Shown here in pieces: positions 32,701 to 49,550 of a stretch of 50,968 nucleotides of DNA. Position 1 is the first letter of the stretch; every line of letters starts with the position of its first letter. The DNA is from a virus (taxonomy: Duplodnaviria; Caudoviricetes), in the IMG/VR virus record IMGVR_UViG_3300017754_000556, positions 1-50,968 of that record, one strand, 5' to 3'. The translations under genes were made by a program, and so were the position numbers. The notes beneath the pieces are model-generated. The model saw nothing but the letters and a program-made list of their open reading frames with translations. It made no database searches and was not told the origin of the DNA.

Positions 32701-35700
32701 TCGTTTGGGTCAATGATGTACAAGGAAGGCATCGTAAGTTACGTTTTGCCCGCCTCTGACTATTTACTCAAGGCACTCAAAAACGTTTCTGGTCTTTACA
32801 TCTCAGAAAAAACAGGTAGCCGTCAAGCCATCAAGATTGCTTTGTCAAAAGGTAAAGAAGATGAAGTACAAAGACTCTTGCAGAGTTATGTTGAAGCTTT
32901 GCAAGGCTTGCAAAAAGTATTTGACGGTCACTCCCGCGTAGCTGAACTAGACCTTGCTCTAAGGGATAAATACCTTAAAGATGAAAATGCTGCAAGAGGA
33001 TCTGATAAGTACACGCAAGATGGACTTGGCTTGCGCGAAACGCTTAAAGCTAATAATTTACAAGTAATTTTTGCCAAGATGTATCAGTTGTTTTCTTCTG
33101 ATGAAAACTCAACTGACCAGACAAACCGGGTTGTTAAGAAAGAATCTGAGGTACCACCAGAGCTTGGCAACATTGTTCGCCGGGGTATGCGCGATCACCG
33201 CCAAGGCCGTGACGTTGATGTACAGGACTTTGTAAACACGTTTGGTCTTTTCCCAGGCGGTGTTGACTTTGGCAATTGGGTTAACCAGTCGGAGCGTGCT
33301 GCTCACTTAAATGCTATTTACGATGCCATGTATGACTTGGCTGATTTGTCTGGCATATCTCCAAAGATGCTTGGTCTTGGCGAAAAGCTCAAGATGGCAA
33401 TTGGAGCGCAAGGCCGAGGCGGTAAGACGGCAGCGCATTACATCCCCAGTCTAAATGAGATCAACCTTACAAAGACTAAAGGTGATGGCTCACTAGGACA
33501 TGAGTGGCATCACGGCCTAGACCATAACTTGCGTATGACGGAGAATGGTAGGAAGTTGATGGACGACACTGTATCTATGCTTACCGGCATGATAGGTGTT
33601 GATAGAGTAGAAGATAACCTGCGGAGTATTTTGCGCAATGTTTCTAACAGCGTAGAAAACCGCAACATGCCACCAAAGAAAGCTTTCTTTGAGGCAATTA
33701 GCAGCCCAGCATATTATCGACAAGCGCCAATCTACAATGACTCAACCAAGACAACTCAGTTTTGGTACAACTCGCGCAAGCTTGATACTGAAGAAAACAG
33801 AAGCCCTTACTACTGGAGTTCTCCTACAGAGATGTTATCTCGTGGGTTTGAGTCCATGTTGTTTGATGCATCAAAAGGCGGAACTCCATACCTAGTTGGC
33901 CCAACAACGGCTGATGGATACATATCTCCAAAAAATGGATATGGTGGAACGCCTTATCCAATCGGCGATGAGCGTCCTATGCTTAATGAAATATTTAAGC
34001 AGATGCTTTCGCAAATTGACCCAGACACTCTTAAGGTAAAGACCTATAAGGTGGAGGCTAAGCTTGTCTATGTTGAAGACTTGGGTTATGCGGTAATTGA
34101 TCAACACAATTTAAGCTCAAGAACTGATGGTGATTTAACTTGGTTCAAAGACCAAAAAGAAGCAGAAGAAGCTAAAAATCAGCTTGATGGAAAAGAAAGA
34201 GTCTTGACGCCAAAAGCTATGCAGTTGGGCAAAGTTAATGAGCGGATCATTAGCATGGCTAAACGTGTAGATGCCATCATGGAAGAGATGGGCCTGTTCA
34301 AGTGGCCGGAGATAAAGAACGGCTCAATGGCTGAGTCTATGTTCTATCACATGCGCCAAGGATGGTGGCCGAAGAGCAACCGTGACTTGGCTGAGTACGG
34401 CGTTAAAGCGTATCTCCAGACCCCGGAACTGCTTGGCTTTGACCCAACCAAAGATAAAAAAGAAATAGACGCATACAAGATTGCAGACTTTGAGGGTGAT
34501 AGGGTCAAGCTCAAGCAGACCCAGGAAGACTTTGAAGCTGCTGCTGTGCGCTACGTTAGCCAAGTCATTACTGATATGCGGGCGCAAGGCTCTGATACAA
34601 AGGCTATCTATGACTACATCGTTGGCTTGTATCAAACCCAACCTACGCTAGACGTTCAATCTGTCTTAAGCAAAACAAACAACGCCTACTCTACGCCGCT
34701 GCCTATTGCTTTCTTGGCTGGTGCGTTGGCTCGTGTTAAGTCAACTACGACTGTTTTTGACCCAACAGGTGGCAATGGAATGCTGGTAGTAGCAGCCAAT
34801 CCGCAAAATGTAACAACGATAGAGTTAGACCCTCACCGCGCTAACAATATGGAGCTAATGCAAATTGGCAACGTAATTGAAGGTGATGCGCTAGATGAGA
34901 TTAAGAACCTGAGAGATCAGGAAGTAGATGTTGTCTTAGCAAACCCTCCGTTTGGTGCTTTGTCATCTCCTCAAAATGTCCCATCTTGGGATGGACGAGA
35001 CTACAAAATTGGTACGCTGGACCAATTGATTGCGGCTAGGTCTTTGCGTACTATGGCTAACAATGGCCGTGCCGTATTGATACTTGGAGCGCACCCTAAG
35101 CCAGGAACAATAACATCTACAGACCGGGTGTTCTTAAATTGGCTCTATGGAAACTACAACGTAGCTGACCATTTTGAAATTGCTGGGAATTTATATCGTA
35201 AACAAGGTGCGTCTTGGCCGTTGCGCGTCTTGGTTATTGCCGGTAGGAACCAAACGGAAAACGCTTATCCCAATGACTTTGTTGTTAACAGGATAACTAC
35301 ATTTGATGAACTTTGGAGTAGATATGTTCAAGCCAGTAATCGTAGCGAAGAAGTCTTGGTGGGTACCGGAAAGAAACAGCCAATTACTGGCGGTGCAAAT
35401 AAACCTGCCGGAGGAATACCAGCAGGCGGTACGCTGGAAAATGGAGAGCCTAGCGGAGAAATTCGGACTGGAGAGGGCGTTGGCGTCGGCGAACCAGTAT
35501 CTGCGGGAGGACGGGGGGCTGGAACTCCCGACGCCGGAGGACGAGGAACAACTGGTGCAGTTCGTCCTGGAGAACAACAGCCGGATACTGGAGATGGTGA
35601 ACGAGGGGGACCCGGCGATATCGAAGCCGGCGGAGCCGAAGTCAGCGCTGATAGCAGTGGAGGACCAGAGCCTGAATTGGGAGGACTTTCTGACCTAGAC

Positions 35701-38700
35701 CTAGATGATATTTTTAATAACTTAGGCAAGCCAGAAAAACCAAAGGGTGGTCCACGCGCACCTTCCGGACCAAGCACACCCAAGGGCGAACCAAGAGCGC
35801 CACGCGGCCCATCAGTAAAAGGCCCAGCAGCTATTCCAAAAGAGTTGGAAGGGCTAGGGCTTGAGGATTTGTTGGGAGAGTTGGATGAAGCCTTGAATGG
35901 TAAAGCTCCAGAAAAGAAAGCTCCTAAAGAAGAGAAAGCTACAAAGGTAAGCGAGAAGCAAACCAAGATTCAAGAGGCTAAGCAAATTGCCTCCCAATTG
36001 AATATGCAAGGCTACTTGGATTTGATGAACCTTGAGTACATCAGAAACCAACAAGTAAAAGAGGCAATGGGCCGTATAGCCCAAAACGCAAAGAATACCA
36101 GTGATGATCCAGCTAGTGGGCTTTACTCAAGAAAGGGTGATCAGGACTATGCCAATATAGAGCCGATCATTCAAAAAGTATGGACTGCTCTTGGTGAAAA
36201 GATTAGCGATTTAACTCAACGCATTAAACAAGTTTATAACTTGTTGGTAAGTAAGTTTGGCGATGCTATTAAAGGTCACTTGCGCACGTTTATTGATAAC
36301 TTGCGTAGTGAAGTTAAAAGACGGCCTAAAAATCAGACACCGGTTCAATCTGAGCCTATTGATACTGAGTCGCGGGTTGTGTACCTTGGTAAGTCAAGGT
36401 TCTCCAGCGATGGCATCTACTTGCCTCGCGCTCAATCACAGTACGCTTATTCGGCTCTTGAGAAACTAGAAGCACAGGTAGGTGACATTGATGAGTTTGT
36501 AGCCAAAGAGTTAGGCTATGCCTCCGTTGAGAAGATGGCTAAAGGGTTGGCTGGCTATCAGATAGATGGACTAGCTTTAGCTATCCAAGCCAACAAACTT
36601 GGCAAGGGTTTTATCATTGGTGATGACACTGGTGTGGGTAAAGGTCGTGCAGCAGCCGCCATGATTGTCTGGGCAAAGAAGAACGGCAAGATCCCAATCT
36701 TTGTTACCGTTGGTAAAGACTTGTACTCTTCAATGTACGAGGACTTAAACAACATTGGGCATGGAGATATTAATATTGGCATGACCAATACTGACTCCAT
36801 AATCCAAAAAGACATTGGCAACGGTAAAACAAAAACTGTTTTTCAGAACGAAGGTAAGGATGGTGCAAACCTTATTTCTTACATTGCCAAAAATGGCGCA
36901 CTGCCAAAAGGCATGGATGCTTTGTTTACGGCCTACTCTCAGCTTAACGGTGGAGAAGGTTCTCCGGCTAGGCAAAACGCAATAGCCTCTTTAGTTGCTG
37001 CCGGTAAAGCTGTTTTGATTATGGATGAAGCCCATAACGCAGCTGGCGTTCCAACTAACCCAGAGTCTATGGGGCAGAACGCATTCTTCATGTCTTTGCT
37101 TACAGGTAAAAACTTGTTGGGTAAAGATAAAGATGCTCCAGAAGACTGGAAGCCACCATCAGCCGTGTATTTGTCTGCAACTTTTGCAAAGCGCCCAGAC
37201 AACATGCCTTTGTATATTCATACCAATTTAAGGTATGCAGCCAATACCCCAGAAGAGTTAACTCTTTTGTTTGGTAAGGGTGTTAAGACTGACGTACTAC
37301 AACAAGTGTCTTCCGAGATGCTGGTTGAGTCTGGCTCTATGTTGCGCCGCGAGAGATCGTATGAAGGCGTAACAATGGAATTTGTAACAGACATTGATAA
37401 CGCTCCACGCGACATTAGAGAGGTTGATAAAGTTACTGAAATCTTAAGAACACTGGTAAACGCAGATCGTGTTCTTAAAGAGTGGACAAAATCACCTGAA
37501 ATACAAAAATCACTTGTTGAGAATCTTGGCCCTAAAGGTTCAATGCTTGGTAAGCAGGGTCCAGATGCATTTACTCAAGCCAAAGGAAATGGCTTTACTT
37601 CTGTAGTCCACAACTACATTGGAACACTCTTGTTGTCTGCTAAAACTCAGACAGCAGTGGACATGGTTGTTGACAAAATGAACAACGGAGAAAAAGTTGT
37701 TATTGGCTTGCAGAACACAAATGGCAGTGCGTTAGAAGATTATGTCCAAAAGAATGGCATAAAACCAGGGGATGAAATACCTAACTTTGGCTGGCAAACT
37801 CTTATCCAACGTGCTATTGACTCAACAAGAAAAATTACGTTGAAGTCTGCTACTGGAAATAAAAAAGATGATGTCAAAGTAGAGATTCCCTACTCAATGA
37901 TGCCTCAGTTTGTCAAAGATGGTTATGACAACTTGGCAAAAATGATTAAAGACTTTCAGTCTGATTTGCCTGTTGCTCCAATTGACTACATGAGAGCAGA
38001 GCTTCAGAGTAAGTATGTCTGGACCATTGATGGAAAGACTCAGGTTGGGGATACACCTCCACCAGGAGTTAAAGCTAGGCACTTGGTAGTTAAAGAAGTA
38101 ACGGGAAGAAGCACTGGCGTAGATTACAGCGGTGATGTTCCTAAGTACATGGCGCTAGATAAGCCGGAGCGTGTATCCATCATTTCTTCTTTCCAGAACG
38201 GAGAAGACTCACAAAACGGGCCAATTGATGTATTGGTCATTAACTCTGCTGGAGCGACTGGTATATCCTTGCACGCCTCTGTTGAGGCATTTGACCAGCG
38301 TCCTCGCCACATGATTGTTCTCCAGCCACATGGAGACATCAGCGTATTTACTCAGCTTCTTGGCCGTATACACAGGACGGGCCAGGTTGAGTGGCCGTCA
38401 TTCACCATGTTGGCTACCGGCATCCCGGCAGAACGACGTATCTTGGCTATGCTCCGTAAGAAGCTGTCAAGCTTGAAGTCCAATACTTCAGGAGGATCTA
38501 GCAGCACCAAAGTTGAGGGTGTTGACTTTATCAATAGGTATGGTGACGTTGCTACCTCTGAGTACCTTAATGAGCATCCAGAGATTGCTGTATTTTTAGG
38601 CACGACTCAATACGTTAATCCAGAAGAGGCCGCAGGAACAGAGTTGGCGCACAAAGCTTCTGGAACGGCTGGTCTGTTGGCTTCCGTAGATCAGCAGGAG

Positions 38701-41700
38701 TTCTTTGACTCTATTGAATCTAGTTACTTGGCTGCAATTGAGTTGCGTAATGCCACAGGTACTAACGCCCTTGAGCGTCGCGTTCTTCCGCTTAACGCTG
38801 AAATGATCAAAGAGAACCTCATTGAGGAAGGCTTGGATAACTCCAACCCATTCTTGACTGATGTGGTTATGGCTCAGTTCAATGTGGATGTTATTGGCTC
38901 AATCCCAAGCAAGCAAAACATCCAGGATGATATTGCCCAAGCATTAAACGGACGTACTCCACAACAGGTTGTAGATGAGATTGATACTGACCTCAATACG
39001 GCTTTTGTAGAGGTAAGGAACCAAATCATCTTGAAGCAACAAGCTTTGTCTGAAGCTATTGCAAAACCTGAAGCTACTGAAAAAGATAAAACAGAATTTA
39101 CAAGACAAAAAGAAGCATTGGACATACAGTTTGCTACTCTTGGTGAACGTAGGACCAAAACGCTTGATGCTTTAAGAAATTTGTTTGCAATTGGCAATGG
39201 CTTTGAGATATTTGAAATTAACAATGTTCCGGCCAGCGCAGTTGTTATTGGCGTTAAGGTAGACAAGACCAGGATTGGTAAGTCAAAGACTGGTAACCCA
39301 TACTCGCCATCTAACTTCCAAGTTATATTGAAGCGCAACATTCCAGACGGAAGGGTTGCTCCTTCATTGGCTACTTTGGAAGGTAAAAGCATTAATCGTA
39401 GCGAACCAACTCGCCGCTATTCGCTGGATGATTGGTTTGCTCTTCGGTCAGTAACTGGTGGGCGTACTAGCCGTTACATTGCTCTTGGAAACATCTTAAG
39501 AGCAGCGCAACTGTTTGACGAAAATGGCGGTGAGGTTGCTAAGTTCACCATGCAGGGACAACTAGAGGCTGTCTCTGGCGTTGTCATGCCGGCTAAATAT
39601 AAACCTGTAGCCATTAGTTCGCAGCCGATTAGATTGCGTAGCCCTAATTCTGCGGTGCAATATGTTTTGGCTGCATGGAACCAGATGCTGCAAACCAAGT
39701 ATGACAAGACCCAAGTAGAGTCATACAAAGAAGTAATTGATAAGTTGCAGCCCCTTATGCTTCCGGGGTTGCCTGACTTTGCTCCGTTTGGAGAAGCCCA
39801 AAAGAATGCCTATGAGATTAATGTTGCTTATGGTGCGGATAGAAATTGGGTTCTTATATTAGATTCTTACAGGCCAACTAACTTTAAGCTGACCATCTCT
39901 GGTGATGCGCCAAAGAAATTTGTTACAGCGCCTGAGTTAAAAACTCTAGTTCCTAGCATGGCTAAGAAGCGGGGTGGCAACTATGAGATGGAAGGCGGAC
40001 GTTACATAACGGACCCAGACAAGTTAATCGCTCTCGTTAAGTTCCTGCATAAGAGCTATCCGGCTACTGTAGAGGCTGATGCTGCCCCACTTGCTCGTGA
40101 GGTTATGAATGTTGAGTTTAAGGACAGCGAATCCAAAAAGGGCATGTTGTCTCGTGGAGTTGCTAAGGGCGGGCAAACTGTTGCAGCTGTCCAGTCCCAG
40201 ATTGTTCCTATAGAAGGTATCACTGTTAAGGTTGTGCAGTCTTCTGATGGGCTTCCTGATACGGCTGCACCTTCTGATGTTGAGGGTGCTTGGTACTCCG
40301 GCAATACTGTTTATCTTGTAGCCGATAACTTGCCTAACGCCCAACGTGTGCAGGAAGTACTGGCGCATGAGGCAATTGGTCATGCCGCGCTGGAAGCCAT
40401 GCTTGGGCCAGAGATGATGAAGGAGTTGGTCAAGAACGTCCAGGCTCTTGAGAAGACCTCTAACATTGTTAAGAATATTGCTGCCCAAGTAGACCGCACA
40501 CAACCCGGCCTATCTGCTGAGCGCCGTGCTAAAGAGGTCGTAGCCATGATGGCTGAGCGCGGGCTTCAGAACGGCCTAATCAAGCGCATAGTCCAGGCTG
40601 TGCGTAGTTGGCTCAGAAAAGCCGGCTTCACTATCCAGTTCTCTGACGGCGATGTTTTGGCGCTGCTAAGAAACGCCGAGAAGTATGTTGGCGGTAGGTT
40701 CAATGTAAAAGGAGAGGGGCTCTACTCTGTAAATTACAGGGGCGCTCCTGCAACCTTGGCTACATGGCAAGCTGCGGACGAGCTAAAGCTGACAGACACT
40801 TTCATCCAAAAGTACGTTGACAAGAACATTGATACCAAGCGTGTCATTGAAGCCATTAAAAATGCAGAAGGCAACATCCGGGATGCTTGGAACCCCTACC
40901 TTAAGGAAGAGTTGTTTCACGGCAGGACTGCTAAGCAGACCATAGATTTCCTGAAGAATGATTTACGTCCTTTGCTAGAGGACATGGACAAGCGTGGTGT
41001 TAAGTTAGAAGACTTTAACAACTACCTGCATAACCGCCATGCCAAGGTTCGCAATGAAGTTATTGCTGAGCGTGACCCTACCAAGCCAGACGGTGGATCA
41101 GGACTCTTTAACTCTGAAGTAGATGAGTACATGGCGGCTCTGGATAAGACTCCAGAGATTAAAAAAGCATATGAAGAGCTTGCAACTAAGATTGATAGCA
41201 TAGTTGAGGAAACCCAAAACCTATTGGTGTCTTCTGGCTTGGAAAAGCAAGGCACCATTAATAACTGGCGCGAGACTTTCCCCTTCTATGTTCCTCTTAA
41301 CCGCGAGGAAGATGAACTTGACTTTGTCAATGCAAGCAGCGGCATGGGTCAAGGCTTTGCTGTTAGCGGGCCATTCTCCAAGGCGGCTATAGGCTCATTT
41401 AAGACTGTTAAAGACATTATTGGAAGCATTGCCCTCCAGCGTGAGCGTGCCATTGTGCGGGCCGAGAAGGCGCGTGTTGGGCGGGCGCTGTATGCCTTGG
41501 CTATACAGAACCCTAATCCAACCTTCTGGATGCCAGTTAACCCTGATGCCATCAAGAATAAAGCAAAGCTTATTCAAGAAATGGTTGACATGGGCATGTC
41601 TCCTGCTGATGCTGAAAGCATTATCCAAGAGCCAAAGGTCGGTAGGATTGATGAAAAAACTGGGTTAGTTAAGTACCAAGTAATTCCATCATTGCGAAAT

Positions 41701-43461
41701 TCTGACAATGTATTGCCGGTTCGCATCAATGGTGAAGACCGCTATGTGTTTTTTAACCCCGGCAACCCAAATGCCCAGCGAATGGTGGAGGCCTTAAAGA
41801 GCATTGATGCCAACCAAATAGATGAAACTATTAAAGGCGTTGCCGAGATAACTCGCTTTATTGCAGCTGCAAGTACACAGTACAACCCAGTGTTCGGCGC
41901 AATTAACTTTGTGCGTGACGTTCAAAGTGCTGCAATTAACTTGTCCAGTACACCTATTGCTGACCGCAAGATGCAGGTTGTCGGTGATTCTGCAAAAGCA
42001 GTCAGGGCCATTTATCGTAGTTTGCGCGGTAAGGAAGCTCTTACTCCAGCGATGCAAGAGTGGATAGATCTGTTTGAAAGATTCCAAAAGGCTGGTGGAC
42101 AGACGGGATTCCGTGATCAGTTTAGCCGGGGTAAGGGTAAAGAAACGATTGTGGCTCGTGAGCTTGCTCGTTTGGACCGAGGCAACGCCAAGAAAGCCGC
42201 CTACGCCGTATTTGATTGGCTCTCTGACTACAACGATGCAATGGAAAACGCCGTGCGTCTATCGGCATTTAAAGCTGCACTAGATAGTGGCATGTCTGAA
42301 GACCAATCAGCAAGCCTAGCCAAGAACCTCACTGTTAACTTCAACCGTAAGGGTGCAAACACTCAGACGATTGGAGCTTTGTATGCGTTCTTTAATGCCA
42401 GCGTACAAGGTACGGCACGTTTGATTCAAACGCTGTTTACCAAAGATAAAGAAGGCAAGATGAGCTTGAGTTCTGTTGGCAAAAAGATTGTTGCCGGCGG
42501 TATGTTAATTGGAGCCATGCAGGCAGTTATCTTGGCTATGGCCGGGTTTGGGGCTGATGATCCTCCTGAATGGGTCAAGTCTAAAAACCTGATCATTCCA
42601 ACTATTGATGGCGGGTACCTGACAATACCTATGCCATTGGGATTTAACATATTCCCCAATGTTGCCCGTATTGTTTCTGAGTACATGCTGGTTCAGTCTG
42701 GCGCAATGAGCGGTAAACGTGATCTTAAGAAGACTATCACTTATATTTCATCTGCAGTACTTGGGGCTGTTAACCCACTGGGTACAAGCACTTTTGCCCA
42801 GACACTAGCGCCTACTGCTGTAGATCCGTTCATCGGCATTGCTGAGAACAAAGACGCCTTTGGTCGACCTATCTCTAAGGAAGACAGGGCTCTTGCCCCT
42901 ACCCCTGGTTACCTACGCAGCCGGGACTCCGCAAATGGCCTATTCCAAGGTCTGGCTTACGGTATTAACTATCTCACTGGTGGAGGCGAGAAGGGCATTG
43001 GATTGGTTAGCCCAACTGCTGATCAGCTTAGCTACATCGCAGGTCAATATACCGGCGGCGTTGGTAAGCTTGTTGTTCAGACGGGTGAGTATGCTAAAGC
43101 CAAAGTAATAGGTGAAGAGTTACAGACGTATCAAGTACCTATTGCTGGCAAGCTGTACGGCGACATCAATACGCCGGCTGCTATTTCAGGTAAGTTCTAC
43201 GAGAACATCATTGAGATGTCCAAGCATGAGAACATCATCAAGGAAATGAAGGGTAAGGGCGTAAGTGAGTACTACAAGGAAAACCCTGAAGCCAGAATTT
43301 GGCAACGCGCCAACTACGTTGAGAATGAGATTGCTAAGATTAAGAAAGAGAAAAAAGCTCTGAAAGAACGTAATGCACCTGACGAGCAGATCAAACGCAA
43401 AGATGATCAAATTAAGAGAGTGATGGAAGCGTTTAACAAAGAAGTTACAAAACGCCAATAA
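29755..43461 (+). CDS. Giant polyvalent virion protein (DarB-like): zincin/LPD1-like, N6-adenine MTase, Strawberry-notch-type SF2 helicase, second metallopeptidase motif, LPD38-like C-terminus
   Basis: HEWHH at 33499-33513. FDPTGGNG near 34756 and NPPF at 34942-34953. GDDTGVGKGR at 36619-36648, DEAH at 37024-37035, SAT at 37174-37182, QLLGRIHRTGQ at 38353-38385. HEAIGH at 40366-40383. Confidence 0.85.
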   Translation: MDVLMPDGTTITGVPEGITQSDLLARYGKFSSSQPQEAALPAQPPTGLASFGPAVMRGGRGLASLMGDVLPAMAGKAVGADEYAKRQMQEAAAYGKETEKLYPSAVPSYTNIKDAGSALTYIVEAVGEAVPSLLPSLFTGGVAAVAGRGAVAAARVAAEKAAATSIAEGVTAEAAKEIAMKAGLNAAKREALKYEVGGALIGSAAQNVPDVYQGLYEKGYDNIPAALIFGGFNAALDAVLPINLLRTSKLSGIPENEIIGAWYKRAGKGAIEGMVSEGATESIQEMSSAAAEKFVDSNNEFFTPQNFERFINAGLKGGLGGAGISAATNVAFGRKEAPPETPPAPPTPAGIAGLTPQAPTPEEQGIPTLVPPAPPVVQPIVEPVVQEGQAQDIEAMMREIEGSQSETTLPPVNVIEPIVVQPQGVPSATETPETQQAAPQEQQAPAAFVTWDTIQPGQDVTLYRGENKDNLKEGEWWTTDKAKAEKFGEVTEVTLPADIVGKHSVQGHGGPDEFVFPTPGSRPTDLVQKPAEVTTPPAITGGPSTPKGPVAPVEKPTEVAPTPKPTIETTTEEKPVVTPEEVAAVEPKGQVTFTTSKGSEYTIDEESKTSRTKKSEGKGQGETYPPHTVLYVNPGDHTDILSDMQGGMGDNSVRLGYVANNKFTPVQAIAEIPEGAKPTVIVINKKNNQIVGQYNALTEPQIGLHPVEKRYETDGTASTHIGNDIVEIKGKEAKIENVEKPVEGKPGGKPEVTGGPSAPAGGPAAPTGKPAAPEGETTGGPSTPAGGAPKPPKVKLTEEEKAKAEEEKTKAEEEKKKAAEEKAKAEEQKKKLEEFNKQPMKVAMEEGNADAVASLLYGNAVSADLLPVIFPEEGLLRIPVDMDKVSDIEAALTKYGFRITDRSVPATTDDPSYKGPERITISALYKPEKVSIQGGGAEFGGNRKGKVTAPRIPKDATDSQISKMLAEVSIDKLLDINSNVENSFGSMMYKEGIVSYVLPASDYLLKALKNVSGLYISEKTGSRQAIKIALSKGKEDEVQRLLQSYVEALQGLQKVFDGHSRVAELDLALRDKYLKDENAARGSDKYTQDGLGLRETLKANNLQVIFAKMYQLFSSDENSTDQTNRVVKKESEVPPELGNIVRRGMRDHRQGRDVDVQDFVNTFGLFPGGVDFGNWVNQSERAAHLNAIYDAMYDLADLSGISPKMLGLGEKLKMAIGAQGRGGKTAAHYIPSLNEINLTKTKGDGSLGHEWHHGLDHNLRMTENGRKLMDDTVSMLTGMIGVDRVEDNLRSILRNVSNSVENRNMPPKKAFFEAISSPAYYRQAPIYNDSTKTTQFWYNSRKLDTEENRSPYYWSSPTEMLSRGFESMLFDASKGGTPYLVGPTTADGYISPKNGYGGTPYPIGDERPMLNEIFKQMLSQIDPDTLKVKTYKVEAKLVYVEDLGYAVIDQHNLSSRTDGDLTWFKDQKEAEEAKNQLDGKERVLTPKAMQLGKVNERIISMAKRVDAIMEEMGLFKWPEIKNGSMAESMFYHMRQGWWPKSNRDLAEYGVKAYLQTPELLGFDPTKDKKEIDAYKIADFEGDRVKLKQTQEDFEAAAVRYVSQVITDMRAQGSDTKAIYDYIVGLYQTQPTLDVQSVLSKTNNAYSTPLPIAFLAGALARVKSTTTVFDPTGGNGMLVVAANPQNVTTIELDPHRANNMELMQIGNVIEGDALDEIKNLRDQEVDVVLANPPFGALSSPQNVPSWDGRDYKIGTLDQLIAARSLRTMANNGRAVLILGAHPKPGTITSTDRVFLNWLYGNYNVADHFEIAGNLYRKQGASWPLRVLVIAGRNQTENAYPNDFVVNRITTFDELWSRYVQASNRSEEVLVGTGKKQPITGGANKPAGGIPAGGTLENGEPSGEIRTGEGVGVGEPVSAGGRGAGTPDAGGRGTTGAVRPGEQQPDTGDGERGGPGDIEAGGAEVSADSSGGPEPELGGLSDLDLDDIFNNLGKPEKPKGGPRAPSGPSTPKGEPRAPRGPSVKGPAAIPKELEGLGLEDLLGELDEALNGKAPEKKAPKEEKATKVSEKQTKIQEAKQIASQLNMQGYLDLMNLEYIRNQQVKEAMGRIAQNAKNTSDDPASGLYSRKGDQDYANIEPIIQKVWTALGEKISDLTQRIKQVYNLLVSKFGDAIKGHLRTFIDNLRSEVKRRPKNQTPVQSEPIDTESRVVYLGKSRFSSDGIYLPRAQSQYAYSALEKLEAQVGDIDEFVAKELGYASVEKMAKGLAGYQIDGLALAIQANKLGKGFIIGDDTGVGKGRAAAAMIVWAKKNGKIPIFVTVGKDLYSSMYEDLNNIGHGDINIGMTNTDSIIQKDIGNGKTKTVFQNEGKDGANLISYIAKNGALPKGMDALFTAYSQLNGGEGSPARQNAIASLVAAGKAVLIMDEAHNAAGVPTNPESMGQNAFFMSLLTGKNLLGKDKDAPEDWKPPSAVYLSATFAKRPDNMPLYIHTNLRYAANTPEELTLLFGKGVKTDVLQQVSSEMLVESGSMLRRERSYEGVTMEFVTDIDNAPRDIREVDKVTEILRTLVNADRVLKEWTKSPEIQKSLVENLGPKGSMLGKQGPDAFTQAKGNGFTSVVHNYIGTLLLSAKTQTAVDMVVDKMNNGEKVVIGLQNTNGSALEDYVQKNGIKPGDEIPNFGWQTLIQRAIDSTRKITLKSATGNKKDDVKVEIPYSMMPQFVKDGYDNLAKMIKDFQSDLPVAPIDYMRAELQSKYVWTIDGKTQVGDTPPPGVKARHLVVKEVTGRSTGVDYSGDVPKYMALDKPERVSIISSFQNGEDSQNGPIDVLVINSAGATGISLHASVEAFDQRPRHMIVLQPHGDISVFTQLLGRIHRTGQVEWPSFTMLATGIPAERRILAMLRKKLSSLKSNTSGGSSSTKVEGVDFINRYGDVATSEYLNEHPEIAVFLGTTQYVNPEEAAGTELAHKASGTAGLLASVDQQEFFDSIESSYLAAIELRNATGTNALERRVLPLNAEMIKENLIEEGLDNSNPFLTDVVMAQFNVDVIGSIPSKQNIQDDIAQALNGRTPQQVVDEIDTDLNTAFVEVRNQIILKQQALSEAIAKPEATEKDKTEFTRQKEALDIQFATLGERRTKTLDALRNLFAIGNGFEIFEINNVPASAVVIGVKVDKTRIGKSKTGNPYSPSNFQVILKRNIPDGRVAPSLATLEGKSINRSEPTRRYSLDDWFALRSVTGGRTSRYIALGNILRAAQLFDENGGEVAKFTMQGQLEAVSGVVMPAKYKPVAISSQPIRLRSPNSAVQYVLAAWNQMLQTKYDKTQVESYKEVIDKLQPLMLPGLPDFAPFGEAQKNAYEINVAYGADRNWVLILDSYRPTNFKLTISGDAPKKFVTAPELKTLVPSMAKKRGGNYEMEGGRYITDPDKLIALVKFLHKSYPATVEADAAPLAREVMNVEFKDSESKKGMLSRGVAKGGQTVAAVQSQIVPIEGITVKVVQSSDGLPDTAAPSDVEGAWYSGNTVYLVADNLPNAQRVQEVLAHEAIGHAALEAMLGPEMMKELVKNVQALEKTSNIVKNIAAQVDRTQPGLSAERRAKEVVAMMAERGLQNGLIKRIVQAVRSWLRKAGFTIQFSDGDVLALLRNAEKYVGGRFNVKGEGLYSVNYRGAPATLATWQAADELKLTDTFIQKYVDKNIDTKRVIEAIKNAEGNIRDAWNPYLKEELFHGRTAKQTIDFLKNDLRPLLEDMDKRGVKLEDFNNYLHNRHAKVRNEVIAERDPTKPDGGSGLFNSEVDEYMAALDKTPEIKKAYEELATKIDSIVEETQNLLVSSGLEKQGTINNWRETFPFYVPLNREEDELDFVNASSGMGQGFAVSGPFSKAAIGSFKTVKDIIGSIALQRERAIVRAEKARVGRALYALAIQNPNPTFWMPVNPDAIKNKAKLIQEMVDMGMSPADAESIIQEPKVGRIDEKTGLVKYQVIPSLRNSDNVLPVRINGEDRYVFFNPGNPNAQRMVEALKSIDANQIDETIKGVAEITRFIAAASTQYNPVFGAINFVRDVQSAAINLSSTPIADRKMQVVGDSAKAVRAIYRSLRGKEALTPAMQEWIDLFERFQKAGGQTGFRDQFSRGKGKETIVARELARLDRGNAKKAAYAVFDWLSDYNDAMENAVRLSAFKAALDSGMSEDQSASLAKNLTVNFNRKGANTQTIGALYAFFNASVQGTARLIQTLFTKDKEGKMSLSSVGKKIVAGGMLIGAMQAVILAMAGFGADDPPEWVKSKNLIIPTIDGGYLTIPMPLGFNIFPNVARIVSEYMLVQSGAMSGKRDLKKTITYISSAVLGAVNPLGTSTFAQTLAPTAVDPFIGIAENKDAFGRPISKEDRALAPTPGYLRSRDSANGLFQGLAYGINYLTGGGEKGIGLVSPTADQLSYIAGQYTGGVGKLVVQTGEYAKAKVIGEELQTYQVPIAGKLYGDINTPAAISGKFYENIIEMSKHENIIKEMKGKGVSEYYKENPEARIWQRANYVENEIAKIKKEKKALKERNAPDEQIKRKDDQIKRVMEAFNKEVTKRQ

Positions 43462-44988: not shown

Positions 44989-45232
44989 CCCAAGGGTCCT
45001 TTTGTTGTACTGGCTTTACGCTGCTATCAACTTTGAGGGAAACCATCCGGTTCCCGGCTTTATCTTTTTTCAACCAAGCACTAAGCTTGATTGCAACCTC
45101 TTCACCTTCGGAGCCATCAAGCACGGAGATTAAATAATCTCGCTCAAACTTGATGTTGCCCGTCATGTCTGGCGCAGTGTCTTTAACCTTGCGTGTGTTG
45201 GTAAGCAGTAAACCTGAGTTTGGATAGTCCAT
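44981..45232 (-). CDS. Small probable ssDNA-binding protein
   Basis: 'N..K....PD.TG.I...LSAW.K....G...SLKV' with an acidic/aromatic tail 'DPWDD', next to the annealase. Confidence 0.5.
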   Translation of the reverse strand: MDYPNSGLLLTNTRKVKDTAPDMTGNIKFERDYLISVLDGSEGEEVAIKLSAWLKKDKAGNRMVSLKVDSSVKPVQQKDPWDD

Positions 45233-45927
45233 TAAAATTTTCCTTTCGCTTCTTTAAACAAATCCATGATTTCAGCATGGACCTCGGGTGACGCTGCTTT
45301 AACTTTGTCGTAATGCTGGCGGTTGACTTTGTACATGTCCTTTACATCGTCCTCGGTTTTAGCCATCTCTAAGTTGAAATTGGTGGCGTCAACCAGAAGC
45401 TTGCTCCACTGAACAGGGTCTTCTGCATCAATCTCAATAGTCCACGGCGGGTTAGGCTCAACCCATTGCTTGGGCAGCGTATCGCCCTTGATGTACTTCT
45501 TAGGCGCTGCCTTTGGCTCTACTTTGGGCTCCTCCTTTGGAATTTCTTTTGGCTCCTCTGCCTTGGTAGAGTCAATAGCATCATGCTCTACGATCTCCAT
45601 AGCCGTCATCCAAAGATAGCGGCGCTGGTAAGTCTCCACTGCGCCTAGGTTTTGAATGGGATGTGCGCCTTTAAGTTCGGCCGCAGCCATAGGGCTAGAG
45701 ATAACAATCACCGTGCCGTCATCAGTATCAGTGATGGTTAGGGTGGCGTAGGCTGCGTCATAGGACACAACGCCACACAGGCCAAGATCGTTAAAAATGT
45801 TTTGAATCTCAGGCAAGAAGTCGCCTAGCTCAAAATACTTGTAGCCGGCAAACTTATTCTGTCCGCTCTTCTCTAGCCTTGTGCCTTGCAGACGTATCCG
45901 CGCAGCCATTAGTTTCTTATGTACCAT
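45232..45927 (-). CDS. ERF-family single-strand annealing recombinase
   Basis: 'KSGQNKFAGYKYFELGD' and the ERF motif 'IQNLGAVETYQRRYL'. Confidence 0.8.
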   Translation of the reverse strand: MVHKKLMAARIRLQGTRLEKSGQNKFAGYKYFELGDFLPEIQNIFNDLGLCGVVSYDAAYATLTITDTDDGTVIVISSPMAAAELKGAHPIQNLGAVETYQRRYLWMTAMEIVEHDAIDSTKAEEPKEIPKEEPKVEPKAAPKKYIKGDTLPKQWVEPNPPWTIEIDAEDPVQWSKLLVDATNFNLEMAKTEDDVKDMYKVNRQHYDKVKAASPEVHAEIMDLFKEAKGKF

Positions 45928-46027
45928 GCTCTTCCTTTGTTAATCTACCAATACGGAACCCAATCCAAACGCAAGCCGCGCAAAGAATGAGAAAACCGAC
46001 ACCTATGAGGATGTTAATTACTATCAT
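45917..46027 (-). CDS. 36-aa single-TM protein
   Basis: MIVINILIGVGFLILCAACVWIGFRIGRLTKEEHGT, read by hand. It overlaps both neighbours. Confidence 0.55.
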   Translation of the reverse strand: MIVINILIGVGFLILCAACVWIGFRIGRLTKEEHGT

Positions 46028-46431
46028 TTCGCCACCTTTGGCAGGGGATATGGAACCTTGTTAGTAGATTGGCAGTGCCCATCATCAGCCGCAAACGGTT
46101 TAGTCTTGAAATCTGAGTCTTCTAAGCAGCCCGTGTTGCCGGACACGGTAGAACACTTGACCTTTACTATCTTGTCCTTTGGCGGACTTACAAATTCCAT
46201 CGTGGCCCAACCGTCACCTTGGGGGCATACGTTGTCCTGAGTAGAGTCTCCGCGCCCAACAATGTCCCATCCCTTGTATAGGACGTTCTCTTGCCGGTAA
46301 CGCTGGGCATTCCACATTGCGTTTTCACGCGCTGTTCCTTTAGCCTCTTCCAATGATGCAAAGCTAACTTCATCTTTACCGCAGGCAGTAAGTGCGCAAG
46401 CGGCGGCGATTATTAATAGAGTGTGTTTCAT
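46024..46431 (-). CDS. Lipoprotein
   Basis: Start at 46431 after AAGGA. Signal peptide MKHTLLIIAAACALTA-C with lipobox LTAC, and four further Cys. Confidence 0.75.
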   Translation of the reverse strand: MKHTLLIIAAACALTACGKDEVSFASLEEAKGTARENAMWNAQRYRQENVLYKGWDIVGRGDSTQDNVCPQGDGWATMEFVSPPKDKIVKVKCSTVSGNTGCLEDSDFKTKPFAADDGHCQSTNKVPYPLPKVAK

Positions 46432-46441
46432 GCTTTTTCCT

Positions 46442-46609
46442 TTAAAAAAATCCGAACCAAACGCCGGTCCCGTGAATCCATGCGATTGGGAAAATGATCG
46501 CGCCAGCAATGAGAAATCCCCATTTACCTGCGCCCAAACAAACAACAACGTGCGTCAGCCACGACGCGATGATCCAGCCAACTATGGCTACTGGCAATAA
46601 CTCTTCCAT
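46442..46609 (-). CDS. 55-aa two-TM membrane protein
   Basis: MEELLPVAIVGWIIASWLTHVVVCLGAGKWGFLIAGAIIFPIAWIHGTGVWFGFF, read by hand. SD AAGGAG. Confidence 0.65.
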   Translation of the reverse strand: MEELLPVAIVGWIIASWLTHVVVCLGAGKWGFLIAGAIIFPIAWIHGTGVWFGFF

Positions 46610-46611
46610 GC

Positions 46612-47490
46612 TTACTCCTTAGTTTTTAAATAATCCTGGTACTGGTTGCACCATTTACTGACAGAGCAAAAGGTAGCGCAGCGCGTCCGTTCTCCTAGCC
46701 GCACTTCTATCTCGTACTCTTTCCCGTACTCCGCCACCTTGGCTAGAGCTTCCTCATTGGTGTCACAGACATTGCGTGCCTTGACGCCACCAATCTTTTT
46801 GACCGCGTAGGTCGTTTGCTTTTCCCACATCTCTTCAGATGTGCAGTGGGGTAACTCGTCGCCTGTATCAAGATCAAACAGGGCGTTGGAGTGGATCTCA
46901 ATGCGCTCCTCAATAAATGCTTGCTGGCGTTCGTAGGGCCACAATTGGACGGGTATAACCTTCACAGGGGCATCAGGGTAGGACGCCTTGATTGCGGCGT
47001 CCCTGCGGCTCCAATCGCGGATGATGGCTACGATCTCCAGCTTGGTCACATCGGTGTTCTTTACCTTGCGGACAAGCCAAGCGTAGATGTTTAATTGAAG
47101 CTCCCAGTCGATCTTCTCGTTCATCACTGACCATGCGCCTACAGTCTTGTAGTCATTAACAGTGATAGTGCCGTCCTCATTGACGATCTGCAGGTCTATA
47201 GCGCCCGAAATAGCCCAGCCGTCAACGCTGGTGTGCAGCCGCTCCTCTACTAGGTGGTGGTCATCCTTGCCGTGTTCCAGTACGCCGTGAATGGCCGTTC
47301 CAAAGATGGACCAGACCATATCGCTAACGTCCTGCTCTATCTCTTCAGCGTGCAGCTTGCGTAGCTGGACAATCCTGGGAGAGGAGATCAACTCGGTGGC
47401 CGATATGTTGGCCTTTCCCTTTGAGTAAGACGGGCGCTTTAAGACGTTAACAAACGTCTGCGGGAGGTTGTACTTGTTAGTGATGATCAT
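46612..47490 (-). CDS. PD-(D/E)XK exonuclease (Cas4/RecB-like)
   Basis: 'FGTAIHGVLE', 'SGAIDL', 'DYKT', 'QLNIY' and a C-terminal Cys cluster (HC...RCATFCSVSKWC). Confidence 0.85.
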   Translation of the reverse strand: MIITNKYNLPQTFVNVLKRPSYSKGKANISATELISSPRIVQLRKLHAEEIEQDVSDMVWSIFGTAIHGVLEHGKDDHHLVEERLHTSVDGWAISGAIDLQIVNEDGTITVNDYKTVGAWSVMNEKIDWELQLNIYAWLVRKVKNTDVTKLEIVAIIRDWSRRDAAIKASYPDAPVKVIPVQLWPYERQQAFIEERIEIHSNALFDLDTGDELPHCTSEEMWEKQTTYAVKKIGGVKARNVCDTNEEALAKVAEYGKEYEIEVRLGERTRCATFCSVSKWCNQYQDYLKTKE

Positions 47491-47777: not shown

Positions 47778-48092
47778 ATGGCGGTTACCACTACGCAGCG
47801 CAGCCTCAAGTACATGAGGGACAACGGCTTCTATGCCGAGGTGGTTGAGCGGTACAACTCTTTTACCAAGCGCAAGAACGACTTCGCCGGCTTCATTGAC
47901 ATCCTGTGCCTGGGCCAGGGGGCGGTAATCGGCGTCCAGACCACTAGCTGGGGCCACACATCAGACCGGCTAAAGAAGATCTTGGAGCATGAGAACCTTA
48001 ACATTGTTAGAGATGCCGGAATCAAGATAGAGGTTCACGGCTGGCAAAAGAAAAACAACCGCTGGGAAGTAAAAATTATTCATGTAGAATAA
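47778..48092 (+). CDS. Holliday junction resolvase-like PD-(D/E)XK nuclease
   Basis: 'MRDNGFYAEVVE...DFAGFIDILCL....IGVQTT'. The ATG at 47778 is preferred. Confidence 0.6.
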   Translation: MAVTTTQRSLKYMRDNGFYAEVVERYNSFTKRKNDFAGFIDILCLGQGAVIGVQTTSWGHTSDRLKKILEHENLNIVRDAGIKIEVHGWQKKNNRWEVKIIHVE

Positions 48093-48122
48093 AGCTGCTT
48101 TCTCCTTGGTCCTCGGACCCTT

Positions 48123-48149
48123 ACCCCCTAGGAAACTGGGGGGTCTTTT
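48123..48149 (+). terminator. Rho-independent terminator
   Basis: ACCCCCTAG-GAAA-CTGGGGGGT 9-bp stem followed by CTTTT. Confidence 0.7.
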
Positions 48150-48176
48150 AACATTAACAGGTGTTAAAGTAGAAAG

Positions 48177-48650
48177 CTAACACGCATGGGGATTGGTCTT
48201 ATCGGGAAAGCTGCCGGTGACCAGCAGACACATCGTCTGACAAACCAGTCTCCAGCCGTGTTGGTGTTAGCAAGATTGAAAAGAGCCGTAGGCATACGGC
48301 GACTGAGGGAAATTCAAGTTGGTAGGCCAACCCCAAGTAAATCCCAAGTAGCGTACCTCTAACCCTAACGTACATTGGGCGAAATGTGATCGAATGAGAG
48401 AGGCGATCAACCAACAACTAACACGCATGGGGATTGGCGTACCAGCGTTCAGCAAGGCGTAAGCCCCTATGAACACATACCAGTCCCCAGCCGTGTTGGT
48501 GAATGCGCAGGCTGATGCGCGACACACTTGGTTGCTCTTGTGTGATTGGACGAGGCGCTGACCGTGGGCAAATATGAACAAACACGGGAACCGGAGGCGG
48601 TCTAGAACGCCAAAGGATTGTCAAGCTGGAGATCAGTACCAGAAACCAAC
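48177..48650 (+). ncRNA. Array of repeat-bounded structured RNA cassettes (A1-B1-A2-B2)
   Basis: CTAACACGCATGGGGATTGG at 48177-48196 and 48418-48437 (identical). ACCAGTCYCCAGCCGTGTTGGTG at 48244-48266 and 48479-48501. The two repeats are mutually complementary. Confidence 0.6.
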
Positions 48651-48668: not shown

Positions 48669-48697
48669 TTGCCGAAAAGCAAAAAGTGCTGTATAGT
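48669..48697 (+). promoter_or_regulatory. Sigma70-type promoter
   Basis: TTGCCG, 17 nt, TATAGT. The predicted start (~48703) coincides with the first hairpin. Confidence 0.65.
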
Positions 48698-48702
48698 GTT
48701 AA

Positions 48703-48823
48703 TCGTTGCCGTAGGAAGCGACGAGTTGAAGCCGTTTACACATGCATTCTGCTTTACCTAATGATGAGTCGCAGATTCATTAGGTAAAGTTCCTACCAGG
48801 GTGCAGTTGTAAACGGCTTTTTT
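48703..48823 (+). ncRNA. About 120-nt structured RNA or attenuator ending in a U-tract
   Basis: A 7-bp hairpin with loop CGTAGGAA, then a long hairpin of 12 + 9 + 13 bp with bulge TTCCTAC, followed by a T-run. Confidence 0.65.
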
Positions 48824-48834
48824 CGTTTCTATGG

Positions 48835-49170
48835 CTACCGGACTCCATCCGTTAGCAAGTGGTTGTATCGCCAGCGTGGAAGTAAAGACAAAAAACTCGG
48901 TGTGACCCGCACCTCCGAAGTAGCGTAAGCCAAAAGGAATAAACAAGGTTGTCGTAAAGACACATACCCTAGTACGCTGGGAGATGATCGACAAGCCGGT
49001 GAGAACTGGCTTTATCGGGATTCCAGGGGAGGGCGGCAGTCCGGTCTGCCGTTAGGCTGCATAAAAACCAGTCAAAACACCTTGATAAAGAGTCGTGAGC
49101 CATCCAACACCCAACAGCCGGGGGAGGGAGGGTCAACGGGTAAGAGGGCTTAGCTGTGGTGATACAACAG
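48835..49170 (+). ncRNA. Putative ~330-nt multi-helix structured RNA or origin element
   Basis: No convincing ORF. Several nested long-range and local pairings (see findings). Confidence 0.4.
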
Positions 49171-49200
49171 TTGACAAGCTATGGATTCATGTGGTATGAT
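49171..49200 (+). promoter_or_regulatory. Strong sigma70-type early promoter
   Basis: TTGACA, 18 nt, TATGAT, with an extended -10 TG. Confidence 0.75.
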
Positions 49201-49206
49201 ATTTAC

Positions 49207-49273
49207 GAGGGGAAAGCGGATGCTGATACAGGGGACTGAGGAACGTTGGTCAGTCAGCGCAGCGAGTACCCTC
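49207..49273 (+). ncRNA. Leader hairpin with a loop-E-like internal loop
   Basis: GAGGG-GAAA-GC...GC-GAGTA-CCCTC with an inner TGCTGA/TCAGCG stem. It starts at the predicted TSS and is followed by ACCTTTTT. Confidence 0.45.
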
Positions 49274-49298
49274 ACCTTTTTAACTTAGGAGAAAGCAA

Positions 49299-49550
49299 AT
49301 GACATGGAACATTTTTAAGAGAGTAGCTGAACTAGAGAAGGTAACCATAGACCTACATCAAGCGCTAAGTATGCTGCACAGCCAAATGCGTATTAAATAT
49401 TCCTCATCTAAGGCGGAAGAAGAGAAGGAAAAGAAACGTCTTTACCACCGTGAATGGCGTGCAAAAAACAAACTTAGCGAGGATGCTCGTGAGAGGAAGA
49501 ACGCCTACGCAAGAGCCTACTACGCCCGCACAAAAGGAGCAAAGAAATGA
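49299..49550 (+). CDS. Small basic hypothetical protein
   Basis: SD TAGGAG, 83 aa. Confidence 0.65.
   Translation: MTWNIFKRVAELEKVTIDLHQALSMLHSQMRIKYSSSKAEEEKEKKRLYHREWRAKNKLSEDARERKNAYARAYYARTKGAKK

Follow-up and report, generated by a model that had tools for sequence, protein, structure and literature searches.

The window, a virus record of 51 kb analysed here over its whole length (50,968 nt, about 81% complete), carries capsid, adaptor and lysozyme genes and also encodes a polyvalent protein of 4568 aa (29755-43461) with strawberry-notch-like helicase, LPD1 and LPD38 domains. Two tandem units of constant repeats and variable inserts (48177-48650, + strand) lie inside a 1.2-kb region without long ORFs, bounded on the left by a 104-aa ORF (47778..48092, + strand) and on the right by small rightward genes. 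The 104-aa ORF, labelled nuclease- or resolvase-like in an earlier note on this DNA, has no sequence match in PHROG, Pfam or PDB and serves here as a position marker. Further left, on the - strand, are genes for an Erf-like annealing protein (45232-45927; profile match E 6.2e-26) and a PD-(D/E)XK exonuclease (46612-47490; exonuclease profile E 4.5e-48). The latter had been called a Cas4-like nuclease, a label that we do not retain: its CRISPR-associated match reaches E 6.4e-07, and a phage exonuclease beside Erf fits best. The earlier note had seen no link between the array and these nucleases, and we found none. Scans of 53 window ORFs gave no match to Cas, Nop-domain or reverse transcriptase proteins, and the TROVE (Ro60) domain was likewise without a match among the window ORFs.

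Each unit alternates two constant blocks, repeat A and repeat B, with two variable inserts, in slot 1 and slot 2. The first 20-mer begins at 48177 and the second 241 nt further on, at 48418; the 23-mers occupy 48244-48266 and 48479-48501, and GTTGGT at 48260 and 48495 has its partner ACCAAC at 48410-48415 and 48645-48650, all as previously described; the two variable inserts between 20-mer and 23-mer are also present, but measure 47 and 41 nt by the boundaries then used, not 48 and 42. With up to three mismatches, a 17-nt repeat core occurs three times in the window (two copies and a complementary arm) against 0.13 expected, and none of 100 shuffles reached three. Unit 1 (+ strand) comprises repeat A, the 5′ arm of a processing stem (48177..48195; predicted RNase III cut 48184/48185); a slot-1 insert of 50 nt with two hairpins (48196..48245); repeat B, the 3′ arm (48246..48266; predicted cut 48258/48259), the end of which is also the 5′ strand of a second stem; and a slot-2 RNA of 156 nt with GTTGGT/ACCAAC closing (48260..48415). 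Identical copies of this slot-1 insert occur in other phages beside different slot-2 partners, and at locus L471 a 99% copy of the slot-2 RNA precedes the slot-1 insert, in the order opposite to that of the window. A 20-mer from the second domain of unit 1 had no exact match in viral stretches; its homologue, with one change, does occur. Unit 2 (+ strand) comprises repeat A (48418..48436; predicted cut 48425/48426), a slot-1 insert of 44 nt common to three other loci (48437..48480; L002, L004, L387), repeat B (48481..48501; predicted cut 48493/48494) and a slot-2 RNA of 156 nt (48495..48650) with a tRNA-shaped frame, made of an acceptor-like stem and a variable middle. The frame has a D-like arm at 48505-48520 and a T-like arm at 48625-48643; bases 48643-48644 disrupt two pairs, one of the T arm and one of the acceptor stem, both of them intact in relatives.

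An extended -10 element proposed at 48162-48170 is not supported, as it lies inside a short hairpin (48147..48170, + strand) whose arms change together in an alignment of relatives and which is found in filled and cassette-free alleles alike. A better promoter candidate is the sigma-70-type site CTGGGA-17-TAGAAT at 48062..48090 (+ strand), which overlaps the end of the 104-aa ORF and is found in 23 of 26 related loci, most relatives having TTGGCA as -35; it was missed by a consensus promoter scan, and its conservation may be partly protein-driven because the -35 overlaps codons. A short leader (48096..48149, + strand) carries an anti-Shine-Dalgarno-like TCTCCTT at 48101-48107 and ends, at 48124-48149, in a terminator-like GC hairpin and a T run that is longer in relatives; a terminator scan made no call for this hairpin, and no antiterminator was identified. 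Eight sequencing runs, all consisting of contigs from relatives, covered the region in short or diverged pieces only. Eleven leader nucleotides (48096-48106) are complementary to 49287-49297, where the ORF at 49299 has its ribosome-binding region (P 0.34 judged on length only), and on this complementarity the leader could possibly be an antisense RNA to that ORF. The right edge of the variable site is marked by a promoter-like site at 48669..48697 (+ strand; promoter scan and relatives). It is followed by a long leader hairpin (48700-48825) that has a T run at its end and an inner part variable among relatives, and within which 48733-48813 also passes the RNase III-type scan; by a structured stretch of 340 nt without long ORFs, conserved in relatives (48830-49170); and by a strong promoter-like site (11/12) and then a stand-alone slot-2-frame RNA, constant GAAAGCGGATGC...GCAGCGAGTA with a variable middle (49171-49275), a frame family with 28 distinct copies among the fetched loci.

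Both A/B hairpins fold on the + strand as the earlier note had described (z -4.64 and -5.01; 0 of 200 shuffles each), the same hairpins giving z -2.06 (unit 1) and -4.56 (unit 2) on the - strand. The competition of the A and B stems for GTTGG is borne out as well: the pair probability of the second stem is at most 0.03 in uncut RNA, and 0.36 and 0.999 after the predicted cut. Folded alone, the second domains do not exceed shuffles in stability (z -1.29 and -0.23), and insert folding is modest overall, weakly above shuffles (median z -0.59 and -0.40). The A/B stem is nearly invariant at its top and next to a 2x2 loop, and its middle covaries (G-C 131, A-U 37; mutual information 0.60; 174 distinct rows). 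The second stem measures 7 bp, beyond which pairing drops from 0.85 to 0.45, the first columns being partly selected for. Slot 2 is built of nested frames, each with its own variable middle. In the tRNA-shaped frame of the window's unit 2, estimated to occur in about 1,900 viral stretches, 10 of 17 pairs are changed on both sides, a value that none of 500 shuffles matched and that related sequences inflate.

Sites cut by RNase III in E. coli consist of an 11-bp helix, in which the distal box is U-A then U.G (UG stringent) and the proximal box G-C, A-U/U-A, A-U and A-U/U-A, so that the cut has no G-C beside it (PMC1540722); the 4-bp gap between the boxes is derived from the numbering of that paper together with PMC3867540. 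Below its top pair, the stem of the window family reads U-A, U.G, four freely covarying pairs, G-C, U-A and the 2x2 loop (174 distinct rows). Distal U-A then U.G are present in 172 and 158 of the 174 rows and, where the 3′ arm was chosen freely, in 88 and 82 of 89; in these 82 units the U.G wobble is kept, not repaired. Proximal G-C then U-A are both found in 174 of 174 rows, for which the search pattern fixed the 3′ arm, and in 88 and 89 of the 89 units with a freely chosen arm. Nine pairs and the 2x2 loop occupy the 11 positions, proximal positions 3-4 being unpaired where the rule has A-U, so that one-strand cutting or weak cutting is possible; enterobacterial counterparts are fully or nearly paired. 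Pairing directly above the top pair is at background level (0.33-0.39). Inserts do not lengthen the helix, and the published numbering puts the distal box at the top; a first register, which had the cut at the stem top, was given up for these two reasons. In the register adopted, the 3′ cut is expected a single base ahead of GTTGGTG, which would remove the competing arm. The A/B stem is likely a host RNase III site by the rules of E. coli, which may not be those of the betaproteobacterial enzyme.

The layout has independent support in 114 loci anchored on the inner tRNA-shaped RNA, 53 of which have a strong upstream stem. Among 49 distinct stems in 23 sequence families, a paired AG lies at the expected distance in 15 families and 8 are without AG; the next commonest dinucleotide at that distance reaches 10 families and control windows 1 and 5, the 18-22 nt window having been chosen post hoc. 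At proximal position 2, those 15 families have A-U/U-A in 10.7 and G-C/C-G in 2.3. AG at that distance is found in 37 of the 49 with a stem versus 28 of 59 loci without a detected stem.

The earlier note had reckoned with repeats restricted to one genome, but many genomes carry them, with covariation. The exact 20-mer occurs in 32 IMG/VR stretches, with repeat B shortly 3′ in 32 of 32, and the repeat-B pattern in at least 120 (about 1,200 estimated). The set that was parsed held 154 sequences, the window and 153 loci (some from the same contig); 150 contained units, 193 in total, of which 179 are distinct and 145 have a closed second stem. Clustering the inserts of the 179 distinct units at a threshold of 0.4 (shuffled inserts, maximum 0.09) gave 104 slot-1 families, 64 of them singletons, and 99 slot-2 families with 76 singletons, the latter an upper figure because global clustering splits frames with variable middles. 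Inserts span 3-104 nt in slot 1 and 37-257 nt in slot 2, and recur as families: 31 of 35 multi-member slot-1 families have at least two slot-2 partner families, and 21 of 23 conversely. Repeat A is present in 1, 2, 3, 4 or 5 copies in 40, 64, 13, 1 and 1 of 119 metagenome loci picked by junction pattern. The pool of phage small RNAs that this suggests is large and unannotated, with about 100 families per slot in 179 units, most of them singletons, and is far from saturation.

The same site could be compared in 26 loci with a relative of the upstream 104-aa ORF. Among the 17 closest (83-97% identity; several duplicates), 6 have no unit, 8 have one, 2 have two and 1 has three; among more distant loci, 5-6 have variant stems or slot-2 RNAs alone and 3 have nothing similar. 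No target duplication was seen in empty alleles. Because relatives without cassettes exist, the array is dispensable. Switch points between alleles coincide with the constant blocks. The constant scaffold with exchangeable inserts proposed in the earlier note is supported by this comparison across relatives and loci. Of the two versions that it offered, recombination-shuffled cassettes have their pattern shown here, while processed small RNAs are shown for an E. coli counterpart in published data and would follow here by extension; both probably hold together.

Genes flanking the arrays differ widely between loci, and none is a constant partner, as expected if the cutting enzyme is the host's. 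In a survey of neighbouring ORFs (75 of 103 downstream and 71 of 93 upstream scanned, mostly same-strand), 44 downstream ORFs had matches, namely 11 small terminase, 9 large terminase, 9 replication enzymes, 5 Dps-like, 3 oxygenases and 7 other; among the best 5 matches of each of the 146 ORFs there was no Cas, reverse transcriptase, Nop or Ro protein. In GTDB, 7 of 39 repeat-B pattern matches are genuine units, carried by four Burkholderiales MAGs, one Nitrosomonadales MAG, a Polynucleobacter isolate and a 2-kb contig in a Flavobacterium bin; the other 32 are without repeat A and were set aside as chance. The taxonomy of the carriers suggests that the hosts of the array phages are probably betaproteobacteria.

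No Rfam family reached its cut-off in the window, with chance-level matches only at E<=10, and scans of 60 related loci returned only tRNAs, two tRNA-like slot-2 RNAs and one neighbouring abiF. This abiF RNA (L129 417-453; 55.2 bits, over cut-off) lies directly 3′ of a cassette, and some arrays have a tRNA gene or a tRNA-like sequence immediately 3′ of them (L008 1689-1763, L390, L404, L003 896-1060). No tRNA cloverleaf with an anticodon arm was found in the window (ARAGORN, RF00005). Two slot-2 RNAs score as tRNA across their exact span (L124 315-422, 44.2 bits; L137 315-418, 40.1 bits). In both, canonical D and T arms are retained and a larger domain replaces the anticodon arm, making them natural tRNA-scaffold RNAs. 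A T-like arm stacked on the 7-bp stem occurs in 20 of 144 slot-2 RNAs (null mean 3.5, maximum 8), the remaining 124 being without it. Another very common slot-2 frame, GGGTTAGCGCC ... CACTGCTTTATG, has 38 distinct copies among the fetched loci, L010, L024, L141, L206 and L216 included, and no Rfam match. At E<=10 the STnc100 model RF02076 finds nothing in the window.

CRISPR arrays have one repeat, unique spacers of uniform length and cas genes; TIGR-Tas arrays have box C/D motifs in their repeats, short fixed spacers and a Nop-domain gene; bacterial Y RNAs have a Ro60-binding stem, with a Ro60 gene nearby. The array is not CRISPR, as the earlier note had held: its inserts are uneven in length and recurrent, and no Cas match was obtained from this 81%-complete record. 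TIGR was rejected with box C in 0 and box D in 1 of 179 units and no Nop match, and bacterial Y RNA with no Rfam match, a crude motif in 0 of 179 units and no TROVE match in the window. Exact-match searches for insert complementarity within the window's own genome gave nothing clearly beyond shuffles (best P 0.05 among 12 tests); with no own-genome target above chance and no partner gene, the suggested guide role is unsupported.

The tRNA-shaped frame of the window's unit 2 also matches enterobacterial phages, P1 among them, in which the same anatomy is found with a related stem. P1 carries several units around its tRNA-Asn/Thr genes, and a P1 stretch has matches in 1,381 of 5,426 E. coli genomes, the middles being swapped in P1-like plasmids. 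CUS-3 has one unit directly 3′ of its Q gene and a promoter-terminator-like stretch, and one ep3 unit matched 268 phage records. Klebsiella phage Magnus has several units in a 3-kb stretch 5′ of its tRNAs (4 matches versus 0 in 20 shuffles). This stretch of about 3 kb (L196 1800-5000), annotated as tiny hypothetical ORFs, resembles a long array of stem-closed RNAs and includes an STnc100 match.

A rule-based RNase III scan of 38 kb from two K-12 prophages made 12 predictions, of which one, in Qin, has the acceptor-like GTGGTG after it; here the cuts were predicted after 1641216 and 1641172. An rnc-dependent double cleavage in vivo has been mapped there, with first downstream bases 1641215 and 1641171 and a log2 fold change of 8-10 (Altuvia 2018, PMC6212723, Tables S5a, S3), so that both predicted cuts equal published rnc-dependent cuts to the base. 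The freed Qin RNA closes a 9-bp stem. For those of the other 11 predictions whose gene names were checked, no row among those listed matches. An RNase III cut upstream of DicF, at 1649182/1649251, is also on record (PMC6212723); it frees a 131-nt RNA with an 8-bp GTTGTGGC closing stem and a D-like first arm. Layout and register at this site are as in the window apart from the first distal pair, which differs. The DicF sites escaped the scan. At the dicF-dicB site, an STnc100-like RNA is released out of an extended stem.

We conclude, with a probability of roughly three in four, that the locus holds a pair of exchangeable RNA cassettes in which a stem, likely cut by host RNase III, would release the slot-1 and slot-2 RNAs and the constant blocks are likely points of recombination. 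Transcription would start from 48062-48090 and pass the hairpin at 48124-48149 by read-through or antitermination. RNase III would then cut at 48184/5, 48258/9, 48425/6 and 48493/4, and GTTGGT, once the competing arm is cut off, would refold with ACCAAC, so that each unit could yield a short hairpin RNA of 68-74 nt from slot 1 and a 7-bp-closed, sometimes tRNA-shaped RNA of about 160 nt from slot 2. Inserts may be reshuffled between phages by crossover at the constant blocks, for which the leftward Erf/exonuclease block (45232-47490) is a candidate machinery. By analogy with DicF and PasD, the released RNAs might be trans-acting regulators or decoys directed against RNAs and proteins of the host or of rival phages, a role to which we give about even odds.

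The stems could also be RNase III sites that matter for the surrounding mRNA, cutting or stabilising an operon, with inserts that are mostly passengers or selfish RNA modules. We regard this as unlikely. Units do often lie a few bases from flanking genes, terminase genes included, empty alleles occur, insert folding is weak overall, and the unit-2 RNA of the window has its two pair-breaking changes; but a lone processing site would have no need of 2-5 units in tandem and about 100 recurring families of inserts, identical copies of which are kept across different gene contexts, and the tRNA-shaped frame covaries. Much less probable is a C4-type antisense nature of the slot-2 RNAs, with RNase P as the main maturation enzyme and a phage gene under cis control. 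C4 is an RNase P substrate (PMC5320573), and the T-like arms and the two slot-2 RNAs that score as tRNA accord with such maturation, yet most slot-2 RNAs lack the T-arm geometry and no cis target was found by exact matching in the window's own genome. The C4 model RF01695, which finds P1 c4 at 68.8 bits, has no window match at E<=10, and the unit-2 RNA is not C4; the true C4 of P1 is of different sequence and without an upstream stem.

Less credible again is that the repeats act as DNA only, as recombination linkers, integron-like sites or single-stranded hairpins, or that a - strand protein is encoded. Switch points fall at the constant blocks, the CUS-3 counterpart lies between annotated boundary sequences and unit 2 folds about equally well on the - strand; against this, the conserved U.G wobble pairs exist only in + strand RNA and the RNA of the E. 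coli counterpart is cleaved in vivo (PMC6212723). The - strand ORFs, which the earlier note had kept in view, give no sign of being conserved proteins: they have no family matches, close relatives are without this DNA, and insert lengths are spread over all frames (71/56/52 in slot 1, 54/46/45 in slot 2). That the array encodes guides for an RNA-guided nuclease of CRISPR or TIGR type, perhaps the nearby Cas4-like protein, is the least probable reading and is largely refuted, since two alternating repeats with variable inserts and one weak CRISPR-associated match stand against recurrent inserts of very uneven length, the lack of Cas, Nop or reverse transcriptase matches in the window and among the best 5 matches of each of the 146 neighbouring ORFs, and a far better match of that protein to phage exonucleases.

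A wider and more tentative reading, which we hold at somewhat less than even odds, is that proteobacterial phages share a combinatorial, integron-like library of small RNAs, in which RNase III adapter stems excise hundreds of effector RNAs and double as crossover points. If so, effectors such as tRNA mimics, sRNA sponges and decoys against anti-phage enzymes would be gained, lost and reordered as cassettes, the neighbours of DicF and STnc100/PasD would be isolated known members of the shared library, and a predictable rule would give the start and end of each RNA. Because P1 and E. coli K-12 Qin carry the same design, laboratory strains offer an immediate test of it.

Likeness to known systems is of several kinds. 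Like CRISPR and TIGR-Tas, the array alternates constant repeats with variable inserts in phage DNA; it differs in that no effector gene, box C/D motifs or, within the window's own genome, targets were found, and in inserts that are long, structured and recurrent. The RNase III sites of T7 separate mRNAs and, to our knowledge, carry no exchangeable non-coding inserts. In the T7 early mRNA hairpins (R1.1), the box layout is the same, with the distal box beside the top of an 11-bp helix (PMC1540722). The lambdoid moron or boundary-sequence slot after Q-pR′ (AgvB, AsxR) likewise places small RNAs that vary after a promoter and a terminator, with conserved recombination blocks on its flanks, whereas the AgvB/AsxR anti-sRNAs are primary transcripts of 51-60 nt, constant in their 3′ part and variable at the 5′ end (PMC4104026), and differ in this from processed cassettes with two slots. 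C4 of P1/P7 (RF01695) and the Acinetobacter Group 1 sRNAs share a constant structured frame, variable loops and release from a precursor, but C4 has another sequence, is matured by RNase P (PMC5320573) and shows no upstream RNase III-type stem at P1 c4. A related but different design is described in PMC3029335.

Closer still are STnc100 (RF02076) and PasD, phage RNAs in which an acceptor-like stem encloses a first arm, a middle that varies and a last arm (PMC8550237). RF02076 scores 33.9 bits (under cut-off) on a slot-2-type RNA of P1 and 52.9 bits (over it) on one of Klebsiella phage Magnus. PasD is expressed and Hfq-bound (PMC8550237) and reported to be structurally related to STnc100 (bioRxiv 10.64898/2026.05.13.724894), which has been detected in vesicles (PMC12370729); the descriptions of the two RNAs drawn on here are silent on RNase III and on any cassette arrangement (PMC8550237; bioRxiv 10.64898/2026.05.13.724894). 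RNase III release of phage RNAs and single members of the slot-2 class are thus already known. For a tandem, two-slot, freely recombining cassette library, the literature searched holds no description that we found, and it appears to be new, though large motif catalogues could contain it.

The nearest counterpart is K-12 Qin (the dicF region and the essQ-cspB spacer), where a hairpin of about 19 bp with a variable tip is cut 11 bp below its top (PMC6212723) and the freed downstream RNA begins (G/A)TTGTGG and closes a 7-9 bp stem. Qin units are single and fixed, and are described as processing sites (PMC6212723), whereas those of the window family are strung in tandem, up to 5 at a time, draw on about 100 exchangeable families per slot, and differ in the sequence of the stem and in having a 2x2 loop where the cut is predicted. 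One design would connect DicF processing, STnc100/PasD and the non-coding stretches beside phage tRNA genes.
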